Assembly: GCA_040393465.1 (NCBI GenBank)
Contig: JBEBUC010000009.1
Span: 10,979-74,978 of the forward strand
DNA from: Flavobacterium sp.
GTDB taxonomy: Bacteria; Bacteroidota; Bacteroidia; Flavobacteriales; Flavobacteriaceae
Direction: 5' to 3'
Length of the DNA stretch: 64,000 bases
Position numbers and translations under genes: made by a program. The notes beneath the pieces were generated by a model, which made no database searches, was not told the origin of the DNA, and saw nothing but the letters and a program-made list of their open reading frames with translations. Positions 8,792-22,311 of the stretch are shown in pieces; the stretch's first letter is position 1; each line of letters begins with the position of its first letter.

Positions 8792-10684
8792 TTATAATTT
8801 AATCACAGTAAAAACTTCCTTAACTCCATTTTTTTTAAATATTATGAAATAGACTCCCGATTTTAACATAGATATATCAATTTTACACATATCCTTTCGA
8901 TTTGTCTCGACAGCATCCATTTGGAGTACATTTTTTCCATTTGTGTCGTAAATTTCGACACTTCCACCATTCATATCCACCCCCCCCATAGTCATACTTA
9001 TATAGTCCGAAGCAGGATTGGGCCAAATTTTAGCCCCCGTGTCAAATTTCATCTCATTTTTGCCGATTTTATCTATTCCAGAAATCAAAATGGAATAATC
9101 TTGTTCTCCTAAAAATAATTTCTTGGAATGCGACACCTTTATAGTATATTCTCCTAACTCTGGGTTAACAATTTCAATCTTTTCAATATTATCTACGTCG
9201 TTAATTCCCTTTTCAGCAATCGGATTTGCGCTATCTTTTTTTAATCGCCATGGATAATATAATATACTGCCCTTTTGTACCAAAACGTTTAAATCCACAA
9301 CCAAATCTGGTGTAGCATCATCGGTTTTACCGAGTTTATCTACACCTTCTTTATCGGTCCAAGAAAGGGTGATTTGTAATTTTTCTGTAGGTTTATTAAC
9401 TTGAATTTTATACGTATTCTCTTCGCCCTGTCCCAAAGCGGTTTCCTCAAAAAAAGCGTCTTGCTGCTCCGTCGCTGCTTTTAAAAAATCAATCCCTTTA
9501 CTCGCATTGATCAACCCCCAACCGAATTGGTTATCCGGCCCATCAGTCAATCCTGCTTCCCTAGCCGTATGTGCCATTAGTCCACGAATACTAGCCGAAG
9601 TCAACGCTTTAGTATGCTCATTTAATATTCCATAATATTGTTGCCAAAGCGCAAAGACCGAAGACACAACTGGAGTAGCCATCGAAGTGCCCGATAACAA
9701 ACCGTAACCGTCTTCTCCTTCATCTATAGTTGACAGCAGACTGACCCCCTGAGCTGCAATGTCCGGTTTAATCCTAAAATCATCCGTTGGACCCCAATTG
9801 CTAAAATCCGTCATGCGAACATCGCGGGGAATTCGATAGCTAGTCACTGGATGAACAGCCGCGACTACTACTGCGTTTTTAGATACCGCCATCGCAGTCA
9901 ATAAATCACTTCCATTCTTTGATGGATTTAACTTATCAGACTCTCTTCTATCATTACCAGCAGCTACCACGGGTTGATAGTATTTCATACTATAAGTCAT
10001 CGCATCTAGTGCCTTTGCTGTTTTTGTATAGGCTCCATAATAATAAACTGGTAACTTCTCCGGATCTAATCCGTAGGAATGATTAGACACCAATAAACCT
10101 TGCGCACTCAACCGGATCATTTCTTCCAAATCGTCGGTCCAATTATTTACCCACAACTTAGCATGAGGAGCTAATCCACGACCTCTACTTAAAGGAGATT
10201 TCTGACCTTCCGAGACCATAGTTCCACTTACGTGTGTTGCATGCTTTGTGATATCACTGTCAGTACTACCGTCTTTAATAATTATTTTCCCCAGAAGGTC
10301 CGAATGATTATACTTTGGAATCCCAGAATCCCAAGCGCCTATAATCATTCCCTCTCCATTTAAGTCCAATCCTTTTATTCCTCCGGAATTAATTTCATCA
10401 ACACCAGCGGTAACAGCAGCAATCTGATTGTATGATTTATAATATAAGTTATTCCCTAAAGCATCAATATCTATCCATTGTCGATTGTCTCGTCCAGAAA
10501 CTGTATCTCTGGACTTTAGGCTTATTGGGGCTCTTTTATACTCCTTAATTAACGCTTCAATCTTATCGGGTTTATAGCCTTCGCTTATTTTTTTCCGCAA
10601 TGAATTGTTTTGTCCAAGAGCAATATTGCCTACAAAAAGGAGTACACCCAAAGTGACTATTTTAAAAAACGACCGTTGGTTCAT
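8792..10684 (-). CDS. S8 (subtilisin-like) serine peptidase with T9SS type A C-terminal sorting domain
   Basis: Catalytic triad motifs GAWDSG, HATHVSGT and GTSMATP; C-terminal KIWPNPASD...ISMLKSGVYFI. Confidence 0.9.
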   Translation of the reverse strand: MNQRSFFKIVTLGVLLFVGNIALGQNNSLRKKISEGYKPDKIEALIKEYKRAPISLKSRDTVSGRDNRQWIDIDALGNNLYYKSYNQIAAVTAGVDEINSGGIKGLDLNGEGMIIGAWDSGIPKYNHSDLLGKIIIKDGSTDSDITKHATHVSGTMVSEGQKSPLSRGRGLAPHAKLWVNNWTDDLEEMIRLSAQGLLVSNHSYGLDPEKLPVYYYGAYTKTAKALDAMTYSMKYYQPVVAAGNDRRESDKLNPSKNGSDLLTAMAVSKNAVVVAAVHPVTSYRIPRDVRMTDFSNWGPTDDFRIKPDIAAQGVSLLSTIDEGEDGYGLLSGTSMATPVVSSVFALWQQYYGILNEHTKALTSASIRGLMAHTAREAGLTDGPDNQFGWGLINASKGIDFLKAATEQQDAFFEETALGQGEENTYKIQVNKPTEKLQITLSWTDKEGVDKLGKTDDATPDLVVDLNVLVQKGSILYYPWRLKKDSANPIAEKGINDVDNIEKIEIVNPELGEYTIKVSHSKKLFLGEQDYSILISGIDKIGKNEMKFDTGAKIWPNPASDYISMTMGGVDMNGGSVEIYDTNGKNVLQMDAVETNRKDMCKIDISMLKSGVYFIIFKKNGVKEVFTVIKL

Positions 10685-10752
10685 TGCTTATATGTATATT
10701 AGTTTTGTTATTTTTACCCCCTAAATGTAATCAAGTCTAAATTAGATTCAAA

Positions 10753-11352
10753 ATGTTACTATCAAACTTTTCTGGAAAACTGATCGAAGCGGGTACCGAC
10801 GAAGCGGGCCGAGGCTGCATTGCGGGGCCTGTCACTGCAGCAGCCGTTATTTTACCCTTTGAATTTCAACATGAAATACTTAACGACTCTAAGAAAATTA
10901 CTGAAAAAACACGTTATTCCCTACGCGAACTGATTGAGCAAGAAGCACTGTCCTTTAAAGTCACTCATTTAAACGAAGCCGTTATTGACGAAATCAACAT
11001 TTTAAATGCCTCCATACAGGCTATGCAAATGTCCTTACAAGAATTAAACCCAACACCAGAATATATTATAGTCGATGGCAATCGGTTTTATCCCGCCAAC
11101 GAAATTCCCTTTCAGTGTATCGTAAAAGGCGATATGAAATATTTAAGCATTGCAGCAGCTTCTATTTTAGCCAAAACCTATAGGGACGATTATATGAATC
11201 AGCTACACGAAGAGTTTCCGATGTATAATTGGAAAAAAAACAAAGGTTATCCCACCAAAGAACACCGCGATGCCATCAGGACTTTCGGTCCTTGTAAATA
11301 CCATCGAACTACTTTTCGATTATTGCCCGAACAGCTTCGTCTCAAAATCTAA
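10753..11352 (+). CDS. rnhB: Ribonuclease HII
   Basis: [34 protein letters not shown] motifs. Confidence 0.95.
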
Positions 11353-14502: not shown

Positions 14503-14510
14503 TATATTTG
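14503..14510 (+). promoter_or_regulatory. -7 promoter element (TATATTTG) for the Sco gene
   Basis: Exact consensus, ending 6 nt before ATG 14517. Confidence 0.6.
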
Positions 14511-14516
14511 CACTCG

Positions 14517-15143
14517 ATGAAAGCTATAGTATTATTTTCTTTTTTAGTTGTTTTTATTTCCTGTTCTACTAATTCGGAAAAGCTTCCGTATTTGGGTAAC
14601 CACAAGGAGGTGATCTCCAGCAGCCAAACGAAAACATTACAGTACTTTAAAGTACCCGATTTCACTTTAACCAATCAGGACCGCATAACCATTACTAATG
14701 AGTCTTTTAAAAACAAAATCTACATTGCAGATTTTATTTTTTTAAAATGCCCAACCATCTGTCCAATCATGAACCAACAACTCAAAAGGGTTTATGATGT
14801 TTTTAAAAACAACGAGGATGTGTTATTTGTTTCCCACACCATCGATCCGCAAAACGATTCGATTCCCGTACTCAAAGCGTACTCCGAACAATTAGGTATA
14901 GATTCCAAAAAATGGCATTTTTTACATGGAGAAAAAAAGGATATTTATAAACTGGCAGAAAAAGGATATTTTTCACAAGCTTATGAAGATTCACAAGCTC
15001 CCGGTGGATATGCTCATAGTGGTGGTTTTATTCTAGTCGACAAAAACCGTCATCTTAGAGGAGTCTATGATGGAACTAATTCCGCAGATGTTGATCGATT
15101 AATAAAAGAAATTGTAATTTTGCTTAATGAAAAATCCAAGTAA
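14517..15143 (+). CDS. SCO family copper chaperone (lipoprotein)
   Basis: CPTIC (CxxxC) motif, FVSHTIDP, conserved His in YAHSG, lipobox FISC. ATG 14517 preferred over TTG 14508, which lies inside the promoter. Confidence 0.9.
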   Translation: MKAIVLFSFLVVFISCSTNSEKLPYLGNHKEVISSSQTKTLQYFKVPDFTLTNQDRITITNESFKNKIYIADFIFLKCPTICPIMNQQLKRVYDVFKNNEDVLFVSHTIDPQNDSIPVLKAYSEQLGIDSKKWHFLHGEKKDIYKLAEKGYFSQAYEDSQAPGGYAHSGGFILVDKNRHLRGVYDGTNSADVDRLIKEIVILLNEKSK

Positions 15144-15518
15144 GTGAAGAAAAGTATTTTAATACTATTACTACTCTCTTTTATTTACCAAAACACTTCG
15201 AGTTTTTGGATCATTTCTGCATTCTATATCAATCGTGACTACATTGCTCAAAATGTATGCATCAACAGGTTTGATTCCATTCCGGTGTGCAACGGAAATT
15301 GTTACCTTCAAAAAGAGCTGTCTGCCGATTCCGACAAAAAACCCGATCTTCCCATCATAAAAATAAAAGAGGTACAGCCCTTTTTTCATGAAACTATCCA
15401 GTACAAAACGGCTTTTACCACAGCTTTTGTTACACCAGTAGTTTATCCCAAATATTATTCGAAATTCATTATTTCTACCTTAGTTTTTTCTTTATTTCAG
15501 CCTCCTGAACTCGCTTAA
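15144..15518 (+). CDS. Cys-motif hypothetical protein 1 (candidate metal-sensing leader / arrest peptide)
   Basis: Hydrophobic N-terminus, DYIAQNVCINRFDSIPVCNGNCYLQKEL, C-terminal LFQPPELA*; paralog of 16721-17089. Confidence 0.8.
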   Translation: MKKSILILLLLSFIYQNTSSFWIISAFYINRDYIAQNVCINRFDSIPVCNGNCYLQKELSADSDKKPDLPIIKIKEVQPFFHETIQYKTAFTTAFVTPVVYPKYYSKFIISTLVFSLFQPPELA

Positions 15519-15561
15519 TTATTTTTAGAATTAGTCGAGTATAAATTAAAAACTAAATATT

Positions 15562-16428
15562 ATGCATTCAAACCGCTTGCCGGTATGCCATATTGGTTTA
15601 TTTGATGATGCGCGTAATTTCTTTATTAGCTCCATTACGGGATTATTAGAAAGATATCCCACTTTGGAATTGCCTCATGAAAGCACCTTTTACACCCTCT
15701 TGATTATTGAGAAAGGAAAAGGCGATGTGGTTATTGATAATAACAGAAAAGACATTGATGATGCGCAAGTAATCATAATAAAACCCCATTGTATTACCGA
15801 ACTAAATATAGATCGCAAAGCTGAAGGGAAAATCATTTGTTTTACAGAAAATTTTTTTTCTTTGAGATATAACAATAATATCCTCAATCAGTTCTCTTTT
15901 TTTAATGGAGAAGCGCATACAACAATCAAAGTACTAGCAGATAATTTGAGCTATATAAACGCGCTATTATCTTTTATGTGTACCGAATATAATAATACAC
16001 GAAAAGTTTCTACTAATGCCCTTCGGTCCTATTTAAATATTCTTTTGATTGAACTAGAACGCATTCACGTACCCTTAAAAACGGTTCATACCAGTAATCC
16101 AGCCCGCGAAAAAGTACAGCATTTTCAAAAATTGATTGCCAAAAACTTTAAGACCAACAAAATGCCCTCGGAATATGCCGAAATGCTTAATCTGAGCACC
16201 AATTACTTAAATAAAATATGCAAAAAAACCTTGGGACAAACCTCCGGTGACCTGATTCGAAAACAACTGGTACTGGAAGCACAGCGATTACTGCACTATA
16301 CCAACTTATCCATTAGTGAAATTGCTTACGAATTGGGATTCGAGCACGCTTCCTACTTTATCACTTTTTTTAAAAAAGGAACCAACCAAACTCCTGAAAA
16401 ATATCGGAAAACCAGAAATGACGAATAA
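15562..16428 (+). CDS. AraC family transcriptional regulator
   Basis: C-terminal double HTH (YAEMLNLSTNYLNKICK; ISEIAYELGFEHASYFITFFKK); N-terminal cupin-like region. Confidence 0.92.
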   Translation: MHSNRLPVCHIGLFDDARNFFISSITGLLERYPTLELPHESTFYTLLIIEKGKGDVVIDNNRKDIDDAQVIIIKPHCITELNIDRKAEGKIICFTENFFSLRYNNNILNQFSFFNGEAHTTIKVLADNLSYINALLSFMCTEYNNTRKVSTNALRSYLNILLIELERIHVPLKTVHTSNPAREKVQHFQKLIAKNFKTNKMPSEYAEMLNLSTNYLNKICKKTLGQTSGDLIRKQLVLEAQRLLHYTNLSISEIAYELGFEHASYFITFFKKGTNQTPEKYRKTRNDE

Positions 16429-16480
16429 GTGCGTTTTCCGAAAATGTAAGTATATGGCTAATAAACCATAGTCTTTTCCA

Positions 16481-16525
16481 GTAAAAAAGCAGTAGGCAGA
16501 CCTATTATACTACTGCTTTTTTTAC
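16481..16525 (+). terminator. Intrinsic terminator after the AraC gene
   Basis: GTAAAAAAGCAGTAG / CTACTGCTTTTTTTAC inverted repeat. Confidence 0.75.
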
Positions 16526-16720
16526 TTAATTGAATACCTAATGTCAAGCTCATTATACAGCAAGACACTAAAAATCATCAACAACAAATTCAAAATTACA
16601 AACCGTAAATACACCTCGGTTTTGTATTTTAAAAAGATGGAGACTTATTTAATCAATCCATTATTTAATACAAACAATCTTAAACTTGGTGATTGATTCA
16701 AAACGATTGACCTTTGCATT

Positions 16721-17089
16721 GTGAAAACAGCTACCCTCATATTATCTCTATTTATCTTGTTCAGACCGGTACTACCGGCTCTGGAATATGTGGTATTTTA
16801 TGATTATATCAAAAATGAACTCTGTGTCAATAAAGACAAGCCAAAAATGGAGTGCAACGGTAAATGTCACCTAAAGAAAGAACTAGCAAAAACCGCTGAA
16901 TCCGATAATAATAAAGCTAAGCAGCATACTTTTTCACTAGAAAAAAACCTGACCTACTACGCCGAAATTTTATGGGAGTTACCTCGAGATTTTGAGGTAA
17001 AAAGCATCTTTAGACCGCTGTTTTCACGCAACAGCCTGTATCATTTCTCTTATGCTACCTTTGTTTTCAGACCCCCATTACACGGCTAA
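16721..17089 (+). CDS. Cys-motif hypothetical protein 2 (candidate metal-sensing leader / arrest peptide)
   Basis: Hydrophobic N-terminus, DYIKNELCVNKDKPKMECNGKCHLKKEL, C-terminal VFRPPLHG*. Confidence 0.8.
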   Translation: MKTATLILSLFILFRPVLPALEYVVFYDYIKNELCVNKDKPKMECNGKCHLKKELAKTAESDNNKAKQHTFSLEKNLTYYAEILWELPRDFEVKSIFRPLFSRNSLYHFSYATFVFRPPLHG

Positions 17090-17412
17090 TTTACAGGGTT
17101 AGTTCGTTATATTATTTATATAGGCATCGGCTAAAGCATTTTCTTTGCTATTTAGTTGTATTGAGCTACCCAAGTATTTTCGATTTTGTCCAATTGGACA
17201 CTACAGAAATTCGCAGCCCCTTAATTCGGCACCAGCCACAGACTGTATTACTATTGTAAAAGAGTCCATGCGGTATCATTGCCCTTGCGATTGTACATAA
17301 AGTGTACTATCCCATTTGTTGTAGGCGTATTTCTCAAAGTTCCGAATTGGCAAAACGATCAAAAATCATTTAGTACGCTGTACTCCACGTCCATTTAAAC
17401 ACACTGCAAGAC

Positions 17413-18333
17413 ATGAAATACTCTATTTATTTTGCAATCGCCCTGTTAGTTGCCCTTACCTCCTGCACCGTAGATAAAACGGATTACGAAGATGAAATAA
17501 ACACTATAGTTCCCGAATATTATGATTTTAAAGAGGTGGTTTCTACCACTATAGGTATTTATAAAATCGATATTCAGGCCTTAAACGGAACTTTGTATAA
17601 AGGTTACAATGAAATTAGGATAAAGATTCTCAATACAGAAAAAAACGAAGTATTGAGCAATGCTGCAGTCGCTTTTTTAGCTGTTTTGAACAAAACAAAT
17701 GGCGACAAAGTTTCGTGTCCTCACAGTTACCATTGGGTGTATAATGCTACCGAAAAATATTATTCCGGATATACAGTATTTCCAAGCGAGAGTGCGGATG
17801 ACAACTGGAAAATACATATTCATTTTGCCGATGCTGATCAAACCGTTTCGGTTATTCAAACTGTTACTGTGAACAAACAAACGAACAAAAACCTGAATAT
17901 GACCGCTTTTACGGGCAAGGATGGCAGGCAATATATCATTGCCTTAAAAGCCCCTCAAAAGCCAACAGTATCCGAAAATCACCTCATCGCAGGAATCTAT
18001 CGGTCCGATTCTCTAAACCATAATGATGGTGCTTTTCCAGATTCTATTTTGGGTTCCTATTCAGAAGTTCAAAATCACAGCTTGCTGTTGGACCCCAGAA
18101 TGCCAGAACCGTCGATGGGCAATCATACTTCGCCTAACAATCAAGATTTGAAACAAGCTGCCGATGGCTTCTACTACGGAGTTGTCAATTATACGATGAC
18201 CGGTAACTGGACCTTGAATTTCATCCTACGCGATCAAAACGGTAAAATCATCAAGGGTACGCCTGTTTCGACAGATTTCACCCCGGGTGTTGAAGGGGCG
18301 AAGAGTGAACTTCATATTGATATTTTATTTTAG
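17413..18333 (+). CDS. YtkA/FixH-like lipoprotein, probable copper-binding accessory protein
   Basis: Lipobox LTSC; Met/His motif PRMPEPSMGNH; YYGVVNYTMTGNWTLNF resembles YtkA-like domains. Confidence 0.6.
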   Translation: MKYSIYFAIALLVALTSCTVDKTDYEDEINTIVPEYYDFKEVVSTTIGIYKIDIQALNGTLYKGYNEIRIKILNTEKNEVLSNAAVAFLAVLNKTNGDKVSCPHSYHWVYNATEKYYSGYTVFPSESADDNWKIHIHFADADQTVSVIQTVTVNKQTNKNLNMTAFTGKDGRQYIIALKAPQKPTVSENHLIAGIYRSDSLNHNDGAFPDSILGSYSEVQNHSLLLDPRMPEPSMGNHTSPNNQDLKQAADGFYYGVVNYTMTGNWTLNFILRDQNGKIIKGTPVSTDFTPGVEGAKSELHIDILF

Positions 18334-18338
18334 TAACT

Positions 18339-20321
18339 ATGAGACAAGTAACCATAGCCTTACTTTTTTGGGGAATAACAGCGCATGCACAAAGCAACCC
18401 CATTTCAAACGACACCGTAACTGCTTTAGAAAGCATTGATTTGGTTGTTATGGCAAAAAAGAAAATCGAAACCGAAATAAAAATGGCGGTATCGGTAGAT
18501 GAATTTTTGGCATCTTCTGATCAAATAAGTTTTATAAAAAGAGGTGCTTTTGCCTGGGAGCCTTTGCTTAACAATATGGGCACAGAGCGATCGACAATTA
18601 CAATTGATGGGATGCATATTTTTGGAGCGTGTACCGATAAAATGGACCCGATTACTTCCTATGTCGAGCGCAATAATTTGTCTGGAATTGACATCAAATC
18701 CGGACAAGAAGGAAGCTTACAAGGCGCAACCATTGCCGGAAGCATTGACCTCAAAAGAAACAGCACCCCTTTTGGTCGCGAGACGAAATGGAACGGAGCC
18801 TATGAAACGGGTTTCGAATTCAACAACAAACAGTTTTTAAACTTGGCAAATCTGTCGTACTCCAGTGAGAAATTTGTTGCAGATGGAAGCATTTCCTATC
18901 GGAAGGCCGATAACTACAAAGACGGAAATAACAATGAGGTACCACATTCTCAATATAAAAAGTTGAATACTTCGTTGGGCTTGGCATATAAAACCAATTC
19001 GTTATCGTCTGTGAGAATCGACGCTATATTCGATGTTGCTAAAGATGTTGGTTATCCTGCTTTACCGATGGATTTATGGCTTTCTCGCGCCATTATTACT
19101 TCTGCTTCTTACAAGCAGTTATTTGAGGACGGAGCCGTAAAAGCATGGGATACCAAAATCTATTTCAATGCAATCGAACATTATATGGATGATACCACTC
19201 GCCCAGAGAATTTGGTGCACATGGATATGCCGGGTTGGAATACCACTTACGGTTTGGTGTCCAGATTGGATTTAAAAAGCAATCGCTATCGTTCGGAAGT
19301 ACAACTCAATGCTTATCACAATTTATCCATAGCCGAAATGCGAATGTACCCGCAAGACCGCAGCAAGCGAACCATGTTTGCCTATAGTTGGCCGTGGGTT
19401 ACCACAGCTCATGCCAGTCTTTCAACAACCAATACTTGGGAAATATCAGACGAAAGCGAACTAAACTTCGGCGGTTCCTTAGGAATTAATTACAACCATT
19501 CCAAATACGTTGAATTTAACTGGATTTTTTATCCAGGAGCACCTCAAGAAAAGACGCGCTTTTTGCCTAGTCTGTATGCCAGTTACAAATTTAACCTCAG
19601 CCAATTTCGTTTTTCGTTCGGAACCGGTTATGGACACAGAGCGCCCTCGGTGTCTGAAGCTTATGGTTATTACATCTACAACAGTTTTGACCGCTACGAT
19701 TATATTGGGAATCCCAATTTAAAAAATGAAATCTCTTACGAGACCAATGCAAGTGCCGGTTTTAACAGTGGAAAATGGAATATTCAGGCCAAAGTAAACT
19801 ATTTCTATATCCAAAATTACGTTATCGGCAGGGTGCTGAGTTTGGGTAGTCCGATGAATTATCAATCCGTTGGTGTAAAGGGATACACCTCCTTAGATTA
19901 TGCGAAATTATTTAATTTCTCGCTAAACTCTAGTTACCACATTCTTGACGATTTACACTGGAACGGAACGTTAACGTATGCTCGAGGTCAAGACGACAAA
20001 AAAGGTAATTTACCGTTTATCCGCCCATTAAGCTATCAGACTTCCCTCCATTTTGGATATCGGAATTTCGGGTTTCAAACATCGGTACACGGCGATTTTG
20101 AACAGCTTAACTACAGTCCTGAATACGGAGAAGACCAAACACCGTCTTATGCCATCTGGAATTTTTCTACCGACTACCACTTTAAAGCCCAAAACAAGGG
20201 TATAACGGTTCAAATCGGCATTGAAAATATCTTTAACAAATACTATAGTACCTATGCAGACTGGGGAAATATTCCGAGAGTCGGACGCAACATTTTTACC
20301 TCATTAAAATTTAATTTCTAA
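18339..20321 (+). CDS. TonB-dependent receptor, OprC/NosA-like copper transporter
   Basis: Plug motif GACTDKMDP (CxxxM), barrel motif EHYMD (HxM), extra HMDM, IENIFNKYY...GRNIF and terminal F. Confidence 0.8.
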   Translation: MRQVTIALLFWGITAHAQSNPISNDTVTALESIDLVVMAKKKIETEIKMAVSVDEFLASSDQISFIKRGAFAWEPLLNNMGTERSTITIDGMHIFGACTDKMDPITSYVERNNLSGIDIKSGQEGSLQGATIAGSIDLKRNSTPFGRETKWNGAYETGFEFNNKQFLNLANLSYSSEKFVADGSISYRKADNYKDGNNNEVPHSQYKKLNTSLGLAYKTNSLSSVRIDAIFDVAKDVGYPALPMDLWLSRAIITSASYKQLFEDGAVKAWDTKIYFNAIEHYMDDTTRPENLVHMDMPGWNTTYGLVSRLDLKSNRYRSEVQLNAYHNLSIAEMRMYPQDRSKRTMFAYSWPWVTTAHASLSTTNTWEISDESELNFGGSLGINYNHSKYVEFNWIFYPGAPQEKTRFLPSLYASYKFNLSQFRFSFGTGYGHRAPSVSEAYGYYIYNSFDRYDYIGNPNLKNEISYETNASAGFNSGKWNIQAKVNYFYIQNYVIGRVLSLGSPMNYQSVGVKGYTSLDYAKLFNFSLNSSYHILDDLHWNGTLTYARGQDDKKGNLPFIRPLSYQTSLHFGYRNFGFQTSVHGDFEQLNYSPEYGEDQTPSYAIWNFSTDYHFKAQNKGITVQIGIENIFNKYYSTYADWGNIPRVGRNIFTSLKFNF

Positions 20322-20342: not shown

Positions 20343-21209
20343 ATGAAAAATCTACAAACATATTTTTTATTGACGGCAATTTCATTACTATTTGCCTCTT
20401 GTCAAAGCGATGACAGCACCCCTGCAGCCAACAACCTAACCTTGACGTTCTCCAATACCTTTAAAGACACCCGTATTGTACTCGGTGACGCGACTTCTAC
20501 ACAGGCTACTACAAATACTTCCGCAGCGGGACAAGTACACCAATTCTCAGAACTAAAGTATGTCATCAGTCATATTCGTCTGATTAAGGCAGACGGAACG
20601 GAAATCCCCTACAACATTAATGATTTGGACCAGGGAGCAACAGTTATCGATCAGTCTAAACCGGAAACGCTCAACTACACTTTAAGTAACATCCCCACTG
20701 GCGATTATAAGCAACTAAAATTTGGACTAGGAGTAAAACGGGATTTAAATGTTTTAAATCAGGTAAAATTCCCTTTTTTCTATGCTACAGCAGGGGCAAA
20801 CGATACCAAAATGATGTGGGAATGGGGAACAGGGTACCGCTTTACCAAAATCGAGGGTTTTTATGACACCGATAAAAAAACGCTATCGATACATACCGGA
20901 AGCACCATAGAAGGAAAAGAAGGCAGTTATACTCAAGGAGTCGACTCGTATAGAGACGTCGTTCTAAATCTTCCGATACAAGCAGTAGTTGGTCATAAGG
21001 CCCCTACCATACTAATCAAAGCGGACTTTGACAAATTATTGACTGGAAAAACCCATACGATTACTTTAAGTACTGGGACTGGGATGGATGATAACGCCAC
21101 CCCAAACATTCATACCGCCAATCAAATGGTTCCGTTTGTGGATAATTTAGGAGGAAACGGTTCAAATGATGTAACGGGTATGTTTTCGATACTGAAGGTA
21201 GAAAATTAA
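20343..21209 (+). CDS. MbnP family copper-binding lipoprotein
   Basis: Lipobox FASC followed by QSDD; MMWEWGTGYRFTKIEG (WxW motif) and downstream IHTG; adjacent to an MbnH-like gene. Confidence 0.8.
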   Translation: MKNLQTYFLLTAISLLFASCQSDDSTPAANNLTLTFSNTFKDTRIVLGDATSTQATTNTSAAGQVHQFSELKYVISHIRLIKADGTEIPYNINDLDQGATVIDQSKPETLNYTLSNIPTGDYKQLKFGLGVKRDLNVLNQVKFPFFYATAGANDTKMMWEWGTGYRFTKIEGFYDTDKKTLSIHTGSTIEGKEGSYTQGVDSYRDVVLNLPIQAVVGHKAPTILIKADFDKLLTGKTHTITLSTGTGMDDNATPNIHTANQMVPFVDNLGGNGSNDVTGMFSILKVEN

Positions 21210-21285: not shown

Positions 21286-22311
21286 ATGAAAAAAAAATTA
21301 GGTCTATTCTTGACGGCACTGTTATTAGCTTCGTGTGCGCACGATGACTATGAGACCGTTTTATTTGACAACCCCGAACTTACTTTACAAATTCCCGTGG
21401 ATTTTCCCGTACTAAACAACGCGGTACTGGAAAATAGACCTACCCAATACGGTGTTGAATTGGGTCAAAAACTCTTTGCAGAAAAAAGATTTAGTTCCGA
21501 CAACAGTATTTCCTGCGCCAGTTGCCACCTTAAAACAAATGCCTTTGCCGATAATCAAGCACAGGCTGTTGGAATCTTTGGACGAATTGGCCTCCGGAAT
21601 GTTCCTCCATTACAAAATCTAGCCTTTCTCCATTTTTACAACTGGGACGGTAGCAAACTGCAGTTGGAAAATCAAGTTTTAGTACCCATTATAACCCATG
21701 AAGAGATGAATTCTTCCATAGTGGAAGTAATTGATAAACTCCAAGGAGATTCAGACTATAACGAATTGTTTTATAAAGCATTCGGGGATAAAAACATTAG
21801 TGCAGAAAGAATCTATCGCAGTATCGCACAATATCAATACACTCTAATATCTGCCAACAGCAAATACGACCGGGTTAAAAACAATCTAGGAGATCGCTTT
21901 ACAGAAACGGAAAACAGGGGTTTTCAGACCTTTCAACAAAAGTGCGCCAGCTGCCATAGTACAGCGCTCTTTACCGACCAGAGTTTTAGGAACATCGGGT
22001 TCCCCGTCAACACAGATACCAATGAAGCAGGACGTGCCAGAGTTACAGGCATTGCAACCGATTATATGAGCTTTCGAGTACCTTCTTTGCGCAATGTAGC
22101 CTATACGGCACCTTACGGAAGTTTCGGGCAGTTCGCTACCTTAAAAGCGGTTTTAGATTATTTTGACAAGGGTGTGTTGTATGCCGACAATCTCGATCCG
22201 GTTTTCAAGAACAACGGCAATAGGATACCACTGACAGAACAAGAGAAGGCCGATTTAATCGCTTTTATGATAACGTTAAGCGATGAAGAATTTACCGGAA
22301 GGTTGCCCTAA
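21286..22311 (+). CDS. Di-heme cytochrome c peroxidase superfamily protein (MbnH/MauG-like)
   Basis: Two CASCH heme motifs, NWDG inter-heme Trp, GRARVT, FRVPSLRNV; lipobox LASC. Confidence 0.88.
   Translation: MKKKLGLFLTALLLASCAHDDYETVLFDNPELTLQIPVDFPVLNNAVLENRPTQYGVELGQKLFAEKRFSSDNSISCASCHLKTNAFADNQAQAVGIFGRIGLRNVPPLQNLAFLHFYNWDGSKLQLENQVLVPIITHEEMNSSIVEVIDKLQGDSDYNELFYKAFGDKNISAERIYRSIAQYQYTLISANSKYDRVKNNLGDRFTETENRGFQTFQQKCASCHSTALFTDQSFRNIGFPVNTDTNEAGRARVTGIATDYMSFRVPSLRNVAYTAPYGSFGQFATLKAVLDYFDKGVLYADNLDPVFKNNGNRIPLTEQEKADLIAFMITLSDEEFTGRLP

Follow-up and report, generated by a model that had tools for sequence, protein, structure and literature searches.

Metal-sensing arrest peptides have so far been established only for CruR and CutF, two DUF2946 proteins of Proteobacteria. 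CruR (Bp2923) of Bordetella pertussis carries a CXXC motif and RAPP three residues before its end, with a fixed CXXC-RAPP spacing of 45 +/- 2 residues and a long spacer to the next gene, and its gene comes first in operons that also encode OprC-type receptors, MbnPH and Sco (PMC9426467). Its arrest was demonstrated in vitro (PMC12992588). CutF of Rhodobacter capsulatus (cutFOG) combines a CxxxC motif with a proline motif and a stem-loop (PMC9973294, PMC8456105, bioRxiv 10.1101/2025.02.05.636593); in cells, the CutF protein either escapes detection or is degraded rapidly. A jackhmmer survey reached 5,334 "CutF-like" proteins, 19% of them from Bacteroidota, using a filter of fewer than 150 aa, PP in the last 15 residues, a same-strand gene at most 1000 nt downstream, a predicted N-terminal signal peptide and a jackhmmer link to CutF clusters (Ozturk et al. 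2023, PMC9973294). The RAPP-like "RQH" arrest peptides ApdA, ApdP and SecM share a C-terminal [R/Q/H]-[A/G]-P-P (Fujiwara et al. 2024, PMC10987492). RAPP/RGPP upstream ORFs of metal genes have also been surveyed, and those of copper-related genes were lacking in Bacteroidota (PMC12992588). Herein, we describe a Bacteroidota family that is built like CruR and CutF, is unrelated to both in sequence and, judging from its genes and their surroundings, most likely switches the adjoining copper-uptake genes during its own translation.

The window analyzed is a 64,000-nt stretch of a Flavobacterium sp. genome, and all features below lie on its forward strand. A probable -7 promoter box, TATATTTG (14503..14510), would serve a Sco1-ORF1-AraC unit. 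The Sco1/SenC-type copper chaperone gene is called at 14508..15143 (Pfam SCO1-SenC, E = 1.1e-23), and its true start is probably ATG 14517, which lies 6 nt after this box and opens a lipoprotein-type signal, MKAIVLFSFLVVFISC; the Sco1 mRNA would thus be almost without a leader. The Sco1 stop TAA directly adjoins the GTG start of ORF1 (15144..15518, 124 aa, stop at 15516-15518). After a 43-nt spacer follows a gene for an AraC-family transcription regulator (15562..16428; Pfam HTH_18, E = 2.7e-21, plus HTH_AraC). An intrinsic terminator at 16480..16526, with the stem GCAGTAG/CTACTGC, an A/U-pair extension and then a T-run, has a folding energy of -17.3 kcal/mol (z = -4.7; 0/200 shuffles fold as well) and divides the AraC unit from the ORF2 unit, giving two transcription units.

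The promoter of the second unit pairs a -33 element, TTG (16686-16688), with the -7 promoter box GACCTTTG (16709..16716). Counted from the G of GTG 16721, this box occupies -12..-5. Given the distance between such a box and the transcription start described in PMC6847099 and PMC9723704, the ORF2 mRNA is predicted to be leaderless. Promoter comparison revealed a conserved box, TCAATCCATTATTT (16653..16666), 67 nt upstream of the ORF2 start. ORF2 itself (16721..17089, 122 aa, GTG start, stop at 17087-17089) is separated by a 323-nt spacer (17090..17412) from the presumed regulated genes, which encode a lipoprotein whose family was not recognized (17413-18333), a TonB-dependent receptor (TBDT) with TonB-copper as its best NCBIfam match (18339-20321), MbnP (20343-21209) and the di-haem enzyme MbnH (21286-22311).

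ORF1 and ORF2 both have a hydrophobic N-terminus (residues 3-21 in ORF2) followed by a DYI..C-x9-C-x3-C block. The block comprises C39, C49 and C53 in ORF1 (15237-15320) and C35, C45 and C49 in ORF2 (16802-16885), after which the linker is variable. The PP codons are located at 15501-15506 in ORF1, within the ending F-Q-P-P-E-L-A, and at 17072-17077 in ORF2, within F-R-P-P-L-H-G. BLASTP aligned the two ORFs with E = 4e-9 across DYI..C..CNGxC..KEL, and a third paralog elsewhere in the same genome heads another lipoprotein-TBDT pair. The first-pass annotation of this DNA had reported two paralogous GTG-started ORFs at these positions. It had placed ORF1 ahead of the AraC gene and ORF2 ahead of copper-import genes. 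The sequence, the BLASTP alignment and profile matches agreed with it on these points, locating ORF1 between Sco1/SenC and AraC and ORF2 at the head of the copper-receptor operon.

Both ORFs belong, on sequence grounds, to a large unnamed Bacteroidota family of proteins of about 120 residues. The family comprises 1909 clusters at 50% identity (E <= 1e-3) and occurs in 87 of the 301 Bacteroidota genomes that were sampled (~29%); 212 homologs were obtained with ORF2 in a homolog search. Sequence searches of Pfam, NCBIfam and PDB found no relatives. Residues 1-60 are very strongly conserved, and C35, C45 and C49 (ORF2 numbering) are invariant in 78 aligned sequences, with the x9 spacing kept in 255/258. 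Lys residues are abundant downstream of the hydrophobic segment, so that a cytoplasmic location of the Cys block is possible. The linker that follows is the least conserved part of the protein, yet its length is fixed: the last Cys stands 65-70 residues from PP in 249/258 sequences. A conserved tail of about 20 residues then ends in PP, with the consensus [I/V]-F-[H/R/Q/K]-P-P. An AlphaFold2 model built from the 78 sequences had a mean pLDDT of 57, with the N-terminal helix as its only folded element, and the C-terminal 60 residues had no predicted structure (pLDDT mostly near or below 50).

The annotation had also expected that homologs would retain the terminal xPP and sit directly upstream of metal genes, and both expectations held. 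PP falls within the last 10 residues in 261 of 270 homologs, as F-[H/R/Q/K]-P-P, a recurrence too regular to be due to chance. The residue before PP is H (139), R (69), Q (22) or K (19) and is preceded by Phe; Arg does not occupy -3, and a third Pro is absent. The stricter observation that exactly three residues follow PP was correct for the two window ORFs but does not extend to the family, in which PP lies 1-4 residues ahead of the stop and tails of 2-3 are commonest. All 16 synonymous codon pairs are used for PP, which indicates selection on the peptide rather than on an RNA motif. With regard to placement, 99 of 103 copies are followed immediately, in the same orientation, by a copper-related gene or another copy: the next gene encodes MbnP in 43, a lipoprotein with TBDT in 41, AraC in 10, Sco1 in 2 and another copy in 3. 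Synteny with lipoprotein/TBDT/MbnP/MbnH-type genes was observed in 79 loci. Some copies lie inside operons, between a receptor gene and mbnP, and copies are also present in loci with no adjacent AraC gene.

Alignment of family ORFs on their starts showed A at -11 in 76 of 84 and T/T/T/G at -8..-5 in 64-76 of 84, with the exact TAnnTTTG at a 4-nt gap from the start in 42 copies. In most operon-first copies, the Bacteroidota -7 box occupies -12..-5 ahead of the start codon, usually GTG, and the mRNA is accordingly predicted to be leaderless. A predicted leaderless GTG start would also account for the truncation or omission of these genes by gene callers. Published Flavobacterium psychrophilum transcription start tables (PMC9723704 supplements) contained no match to either of two versions of the promoter/start sequence of the family or to "copper". 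Nine family promoters from several genera have CAATCC at -67 or -66, and seven of these loci also contain a family-ORF-AraC pair. We infer from this distribution that TCAATCCATTATTT is a candidate operator for the AraC regulator. The suggested double use of the leader, at the regulator and then at the transporter, finds support in the pairing in 10 loci and in a -67 box found mostly in those loci.

Compared with CruR, the family shows the same overall design. In each case a small ORF encodes a hydrophobic N-terminus, a conserved Cys motif and, at a fixed spacing from it, Pro-Pro about three residues before the stop. Each opens copper-uptake operons that include an OprC-type TonB receptor, MbnP/MbnH and Sco, and each is followed by a long spacer (162 nt in Bordetella, 323 nt after ORF2). 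However, no sequence or profile similarity is detectable, the Cys motif is C-x9-C-x3-C instead of CXXC, the ending is F-[H/R/Q/K]-P-P instead of R-A-P-P, and the spacing between the two is 65-70 residues instead of 45. The family also differs in its predicted leaderless GTG start, in a phylum without Shine-Dalgarno sequences, and in having no Rho loading site signal in its spacers (p = 0.24). With CutF it shares CxxxC, an export-type segment at the N-terminus and a proline motif at the C-terminus. ORF1 and all 10 AraC-preceding copies further share a stem-loop right after the ORF that a stalled ribosome could melt; in CutF such melting would expose the initiation region of the next gene, and the ORF1 type has the same design. 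In contrast, the CutF motif is PPP and EF-P-dependent, its stem-loop shields a Shine-Dalgarno sequence, of which there is none to shield in this family, and its target is a copper-detoxifying oxidase, whereas that of ORF1 is a regulator gene.

A hairpin over each stop codon had been part of the proposal, which on this point finds support for ORF1 but not for ORF2. The ORF1 hairpin (15509..15540) starts 3 nt after the PP codons, holds the stop in its 5' arm and has -8.2 kcal/mol (z = -2.8; 2/200 shuffles fold as well). All 10 AraC-preceding homologs, drawn from at least six lineages, have such a hairpin, again with the stop codon on the 5' side. In 7 of them, the AraC ATG is overlapped by the 3' arm or lies no more than 6 nt from its end; in the window that distance is 21 nt. 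For spacers shorter than 70 nt, the first 16 nt after PP are paired in 71%, against 23% of controls. The hairpin over the ORF2 stop (17082..17107) is weak (-5.7 kcal/mol, local z = -2.5), is not outstanding in its 73-nt context (z = +0.85) and changes register in the closest relatives, L001 and L002; it is probably not a conserved functional element. The long-spacer class showed no enrichment of a hairpin over the stop, and a family-wide stop-codon hairpin was rejected (overall enrichment p = 0.098; enriched only in the class with spacers below 70 nt). The 3' arms of the two window hairpins resemble each other because they complement the shared GCTAA / GGCTAA around the stop. From sequence, a hairpin-over-stop mechanism is supported for the AraC-preceding (ORF1) type and not for ORF2.

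The long spacers were also screened for other elements. The ORF2 spacer contains no -7 box, no terminator-like site in a terminator scan and no Rfam match, and the Rfam search of the spacers was likewise empty. An alignment of 25 long ORF2-type spacers revealed no block conserved across genera, and a C-rich, G-poor Rho-loading signature was no stronger than in control spacers (p = 0.24). A promoter for the downstream genes within the spacers was also rejected, as -7 boxes occurred in 6/93 against 10.9 +/- 2.8 expected, none of them well placed.

Taken together, these results lead us to favor, at a probability of roughly 0.6, a reading of ORF1 and ORF2 as cis-acting leader genes whose nascent peptides would sense copper, pause their own ribosome at the C-terminal [I/V]-F-[H/R/Q/K]-P-P and control the next gene. 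With ORF2 mRNA starting at the GTG, the operon transcript would be translated from ORF2 first. By the time PP is reached, residues 1 to ~85, and with them the hydrophobic segment and the Cys block, would have emerged from the exit tunnel of the ribosome. Copper binding, or copper-dependent membrane insertion or folding, could then alter the force on the chain and change the length of the pause. At the ORF1 type, the paused ribosome would cover the 5' arm of the hairpin that holds the stop, freeing the 3' arm and the AraC initiation region in a CutF-like manner. At the long-spacer ORF2 type, it would most likely shield the 323-nt spacer from premature termination or decay, as in CruR. AraC would then act on the -67 box of the ORF2 promoter, adding a second tier of control. 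By analogy with CruR and from the uptake function of the genes, we expect low copper to switch them on.

The evidence counted for an arrest leader is the invariant PP and F across the family, the use of every synonymous codon pair for PP, the 1-4-residue tail, the fixed Cys-PP spacing, the AraC-type hairpins, the 99/103 upstream placement and the lack of predicted structure at the C-terminal end of the AlphaFold2 model, together with a -7 box at the start codon and none in the spacer, Rho and EF-P both encoded in this genome, and the CruR and CutF precedents. Counted against it are the terminal motif and the residues that follow it, taken up below, the possible cytoplasmic location of the Cys block, the long spacers, which have no conserved block, no Rho signature (p = 0.24) and no enrichment of stop structures (p = 0.098), and the strong conservation of residues 1-60, which also fits a stable protein with its own function. 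The original interpretation as cis-acting copper-sensing leaders keeps its comparative predictions and finds no support for a hairpin mechanism at ORF2.

That stable protein is the strongest alternative, although we consider it unlikely. The family would consist of small membrane-anchored or exported copper-binding proteins acting in trans, as a chaperone or as a sensor partner of MbnP, the receptor or AraC, with F-x-P-P as a contact or stability motif. Such a role would fit the conserved residues 1-60, an invariant three-Cys block typical of Cu(I) ligands, co-encoding with copper-handling proteins and the copies within operons between the receptor gene and mbnP. However, copper genes of three unrelated types follow family members immediately, which a cis element fits better, and the C-terminal half has no predicted fold. 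A protein acting in trans also leaves unexplained why PP is fixed near the stop and at a set distance from the Cys block over a variable linker; in addition, a ribosome at PP would open the hairpin present in each of the 10 AraC-preceding copies.

A second alternative, to which we give only a slim chance, is a plain leader or attenuator that couples transcription and translation with no metal sensing of its own. AraC or some other factor would convey the copper signal, and the conserved parts of the peptide would help to bring the mRNA-ribosome complex to the membrane. The conserved -67 box, which suggests transcriptional control by AraC, is in line with this, as is co-transcription, taken from the predicted leaderless layout and the lack of a promoter box in the spacer. 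But a plain leader does not account for the invariance of the Cys block and of F-x-P-P or for the constant distance that separates the two, and copies occur in loci where no AraC gene is adjacent. The remaining alternative, a very distant and unrecognizable DUF2946 branch that would make the family a member of the CruR/CutF group and not an independent invention, has in its favor the size, architecture, CxxxC (as in CutF), PP near the end, operon contents and Bacteroidota share of the CutF-like survey, but is just as improbable because PF11162 (DUF2946) matched neither 31 family members nor anything in the whole genome at E <= 10, hhalign of the family profile against 12 Bacteroidota DUF2946-like proteins gave a probability of 0.7%, recognizable DUF2946-like leaders (CxxC plus R-A/G-P-P) coexist with the family in the same genomes and genus, and F-[HR]-P-P lies 65-70 residues from the last Cys while RAPP lies 45 from CXXC. 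All three DUF2946 searches thus sided with the annotation, which had supposed a sequence-distinct counterpart.

Within the preferred cis-acting copper-sensing reading, the motif itself can be compared with the RQH peptides. Shared features are a C-terminal x-x-P-P near the stop, an N-terminal localization segment, an unconserved middle and the R/H/Q residue set beside the prolines. The family does not conform to [R/Q/H]-[A/G]-P-P, since its motif is F-[H/R/Q/K]-P-P: R/H/Q/K adjoins PP after an invariant Phe, whereas in the RQH peptides R/Q/H stands at -3 and is followed by Ala or Gly. F-[HR]-P-P does not have the Arg that RAPP carries at -3 and is not among the demonstrated arrest motifs. The residues after PP here (L/I/V) are a weak context for polyproline pausing in EF-P studies. 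We advance only tentatively, at somewhat under even odds, the broader proposal that [I/V]-F-[H/R/Q/K]-P-P is a new class of arrest motif, independent of R-A/G-P-P and evolved in Bacteroidota on leaderless, mostly GUG-initiated copper-sensor peptides for uptake genes. It would be used three times in this genome, once for AraC through a stop-codon hairpin and twice for receptor operons, forming a two-tier nascent-peptide cascade. The family may fill in Bacteroidota the role of the RAPP/RGPP upstream ORFs of copper genes. If so, a phylum that initiates translation without Shine-Dalgarno sequences would have arrived at this regulatory logic by way of another peptide motif. This would provide a new arrest sequence for ribosome-tunnel studies and explain the control of MbnP/MbnH and OprC-type copper-uptake genes in flavobacteria.

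DUF6769 (PF20558) resembles the family in its Bacteroidota distribution, similar size and N-terminal hydrophobic segment, but it is a different family of small His/Cys-rich proteins with a canonical RAPP motif. The two members examined end in G-L-R-A-P-P plus two residues, and DUF6769 was found in 2/201 genomes. It was rejected as the Pfam name of the present family, since 2 of 31 members reached only E = 0.015 and the genome contained no match at E <= 10. By length (124 and 122 aa), PP position (3 from the end) and distance to the downstream gene (43 and 323 nt), ORF1 and ORF2 fall within the range of the CutF-like survey, and the family may already be silently included among its Bacteroidota proteins (PMC9973294).

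The reading best supported by our analysis, at a probability of about 0.6, is that of the first-pass annotation: ORF1 and ORF2 are candidate copper-sensing ribosome-arrest leaders. This reading is drawn entirely from comparative anatomy. The observations behind it were confirmed overall, except for a hairpin over the ORF2 stop codon and the description of the C-terminal tail as exactly three residues. The region is organized in two transcription units. Unit 1 begins with a Sco1/SenC gene (14508/14517-15143), continues with ORF1 (15144-15518), which starts with a GTG immediately after the Sco1 stop, and, after a 43-nt spacer, with an AraC-family regulator gene (15562-16428). A strong intrinsic terminator (16480-16526, -17.3 kcal/mol, z = -4.7) closes it. 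Unit 2 is opened by ORF2 (16721-17089), followed by a 323-nt spacer and then by genes for a lipoprotein of unknown family, a TonB-dependent receptor whose top NCBIfam match was the TonB-copper model, MbnP, and the di-haem enzyme MbnH. A third paralog on another contig (L083, G000:C33:5553-5927) encodes 124 aa with an ATG start and the C-terminal end LFRPPVCL, and lacks a hairpin over its stop. It heads a second lipoprotein-receptor pair, formed by a paralogous lipoprotein (298 aa) and a TonB-dependent receptor (666 aa).

Two neighboring genes gave further observations. The Sco1 start is probably ATG 14517 rather than TTG 14508; a lipoprotein signal, MKAIVLFSFLVVFISC, lies at ATG 14517, and a TATATTTG box lies 6 nt 5' of this ATG (box and start within 14503-14519), for a predicted leader of ~2 nt. 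The unit 2 lipoprotein (17413-18333, 306 aa), which always lies 5' of a copper-type receptor, has no Pfam, NCBIfam or PDB relative; it is a conserved and as yet uncharacterised partner of such receptors.

The proposed paralogy of ORF1 and ORF2 was borne out by BLASTP across the Cys block (E = 4e-9). A word-index search with ORF2 returned 212 homologs, all annotated "hypothetical protein" and mostly from Flavobacteriales, and an exhaustive ORF1 search gave 1909 clusters (50% identity, E <= 1e-3), nearly all of 120-125 residues. By profile search, 87 of the 301 Bacteroidota genomes sampled, from 55 of 143 genera, contained the family, with 1-3 copies each. No Pfam model, NCBIfam model or PDB relative was found for it. 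In alignments of 31 and 78 members, D28, Y29, I30, C35, N37, C45, G47, C49, L51, P118 and P119 were invariant and F116 nearly so. Residues 1-60 were highly conserved and residues 61-100 the least so, with conservation rising again over the last 20. Hydrophobicity of membrane or signal grade was confined to residues 3-21. An AlphaFold2 model built from 78 sequences contained a kinked N-terminal helix and a helix at 50-63, with no structure predicted for the last 60 residues (pLDDT mostly near or below 50).

The C-terminal F-x-P-P motif was upheld across the family: 261 of 270 homologs have PP among their last 10 residues. The tail consensus was Y-x-F-x-[F/Y]-x-x-S-[I/V]-F-[H/R/Q/K]-P-P, with 1-4 further residues before the stop codon. 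All 16 synonymous codon pairs for PP occur, which argues for a constraint at the level of the peptide rather than the RNA. PP is 65-70 residues from the last Cys in 249 of 258 sequences, even though the stretch between them is the least conserved part of the protein. Judged by sequence, this combination of sensor block, constant-length linker and conserved tail with a proline motif beside the stop codon is the anatomy of an arrest peptide. It matches that of CruR, in which a CXXC is followed by 45 +/- 2 residues and a RAPP three residues from the end (Roy et al., PMC9426467).

Genomic position agreed with the expectation that the family lies consistently upstream of metal genes. We surveyed the neighbors of 103 copies, taken from 79 named-genome loci and the source genome, and 99 lay directly upstream, on the same strand, of MbnP (43), a lipoprotein-receptor pair (41), an AraC regulator (10), Sco1 (2) or another copy (3). 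A dedicated protein partner explains the placement of one family immediately 5' of three unrelated gene types less well than a cis-acting leader does. In six loci (L008, L012, L013, L015, L018 and L019; ~10590-10900) from Winogradskyella and some Flavobacterium, tblastn detected an extra family-like frame between the receptor gene and mbnP. By motif scan this frame was a full copy in all but L019, with a spacer of 38-68 nt and in some cases a longer tail after PP, indicating that the leader could gate an internal operon junction.

Most operon-first copies appear to carry their own promoter. When 84 copies were aligned on their start codons, A was found at -11 in 76, and T, T, T and G at -8 to -5 in 71, 76, 66 and 64, respectively; 42 had an exact TAnnTTTG with a 4-nt gap to the start. 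In published transcription-start maps for F. johnsoniae and F. psychrophilum, the sigma-A "-7" box sits at -12 to -5 of the start site (PMC6847099, PMC9723704), and the family's TAnnTTTG is, on sequence grounds, this Bacteroidota box. Because it lies exactly at -12 to -5 from the start codon, the predicted 5' end of the transcript is that codon's first base. The start was GTG in 69 of 103 copies under the start-picking rule used here, and the coding periodicity of codons 2-11 (entropy 0.70 at position 2 vs 1.49 at position 3) argues that translation begins there. Operon-first family ORFs would thus mostly give GUG-initiated mRNAs without a leader, of a kind rare in flavobacteria; leaderless mRNAs make up ~5.5% of those of F. 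psychrophilum (PMC9723704). For ORF2, the "-7" box GACCTTTG lies at 16709-16716, with a TTG at 16686-16688. Copies that follow a Sco1 or receptor gene are without the box, and ATG or TTG starts are commoner among them. In the spacers downstream of family ORFs the box occurred in only 6 of 93 (10.9 +/- 2.8 expected) and was in no case usefully spaced for the next gene, so that the downstream genes appear to depend on the leader's promoter.

Existing gene calls often truncate these proteins. The ORF2 call on record (P0002) begins at Met43 and spans 80 aa, missing the hydrophobic segment and the first Cys, and many family entries begin at an internal Met (109-112 aa). Gene callers seem to have been misled by the leaderless GTG start.

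RNA structure at the stop codon divided the two ORFs. The hairpin claimed for ORF1 (15509-15540) stood above chance (z = -2.8), with its 3' arm ending 21 nt 5' of the AraC ATG. Each of the 10 copies preceding AraC genes has a hairpin whose 5' arm includes the stop codon and which begins 1-7 nt beyond the PP codons; these copies come from six or more lineages, and their nucleotide sequences are unrelated. The 3' arm of 7 of the hairpins ends <=6 nt from the AraC ATG or overlaps it. With spacers <70 nt, the first 16 nt after PP were paired with downstream sequence in 71%, vs 23% of control stops. By occupying the 5' arm, a ribosome paused at PP would leave the AraC initiation region unpaired, in the manner proposed for the stalled ribosome and stem-loop of CutF (PMC9973294). 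The ORF2 hairpin was weak (-5.7 kcal/mol), unremarkable in its sequence context, and in a different register in its two closest relatives, and nothing like it was enriched among long spacers. Long spacers also had no conserved block, Rfam match or C-over-G bias, and the ORF2 spacer contained no terminator-like site. For ORF2, therefore, a CruR-like mechanism, with ribosome pausing that blocks Rho-dependent termination, is no more than an analogy. The source genome has genes for both Rho and EF-P. In one Flavobacterium subgroup (L023, L027, L031 and L056), spacers of 82-84 nt contain a conserved inverted repeat, TTCGATA-N5/7-TATCGAA, ~30 nt after the family ORF stop and followed by TTTATTATCAAA. 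Its sequence changes preserve pairing, and it may act as a hairpin in the RNA or as an operator in the DNA.

The family ORF-AraC pairing was found in 10 loci. Nine family promoters, drawn from several genera, share a TCAATCCAwTnATT box at -67 (once -66) relative to the start codon, and 7 of these 9 loci also contain the pairing; the box of ORF2 lies at 16653-16666. It makes a good candidate operator for AraC, and AraC binding there would tie ORF1 and its regulator to the ORF2 promoter.

The claim that the family is distinct in sequence from DUF2946, which includes CruR and CutF, held: PF11162 matched none of 31 members and nothing in the source genome. The CruR homologs listed by Roy et al. 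(PMC9426467) include no flavobacteria, and a 2025 EMBO J survey reported Bacteroidota to lack RAPP/RGPP uORFs of Cu-related genes (PMC12992588). Bacteroidota do hold recognisable DUF2946-like leaders, with CxxC and R-A/G-P-P plus 2-4 residues, 5' of lipoprotein or receptor genes. Weak matches to them came from 22 of 301 genomes, among them one of the same genus; the family is also present in several of the 22. A profile of 12 such leaders showed no similarity to the family in hhalign (probability 0.7%), making the family an analogue of DUF2946 and not a detectable member. Ozturk et al. (2023, PMC9973294) assigned 19% of 5,334 jackhmmer-derived "CutF-like" proteins to Bacteroidota without describing them further, and the family may already be counted there. 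Our full-text literature search found no paper describing it.

Other candidate leaders were also observed. A genome of the same genus (G203) encodes at L092 (reverse strand, 1435-1842) a DUF2946-like leader, CSIC ... F-A-H-R-G-P-P-A-V-L, 5' of a TonB-dependent receptor, which would place two unrelated leader families with the same job inside one genus. Two Bacteroidota members of DUF6769 (L104, 1462-1917; L105, 1453-1911) are small, His/Cys-rich and end in G-L-R-A-P-P plus two residues; DUF6769 looks like a further family of metal-sensing RAPP arrest leaders, so far undescribed as such.
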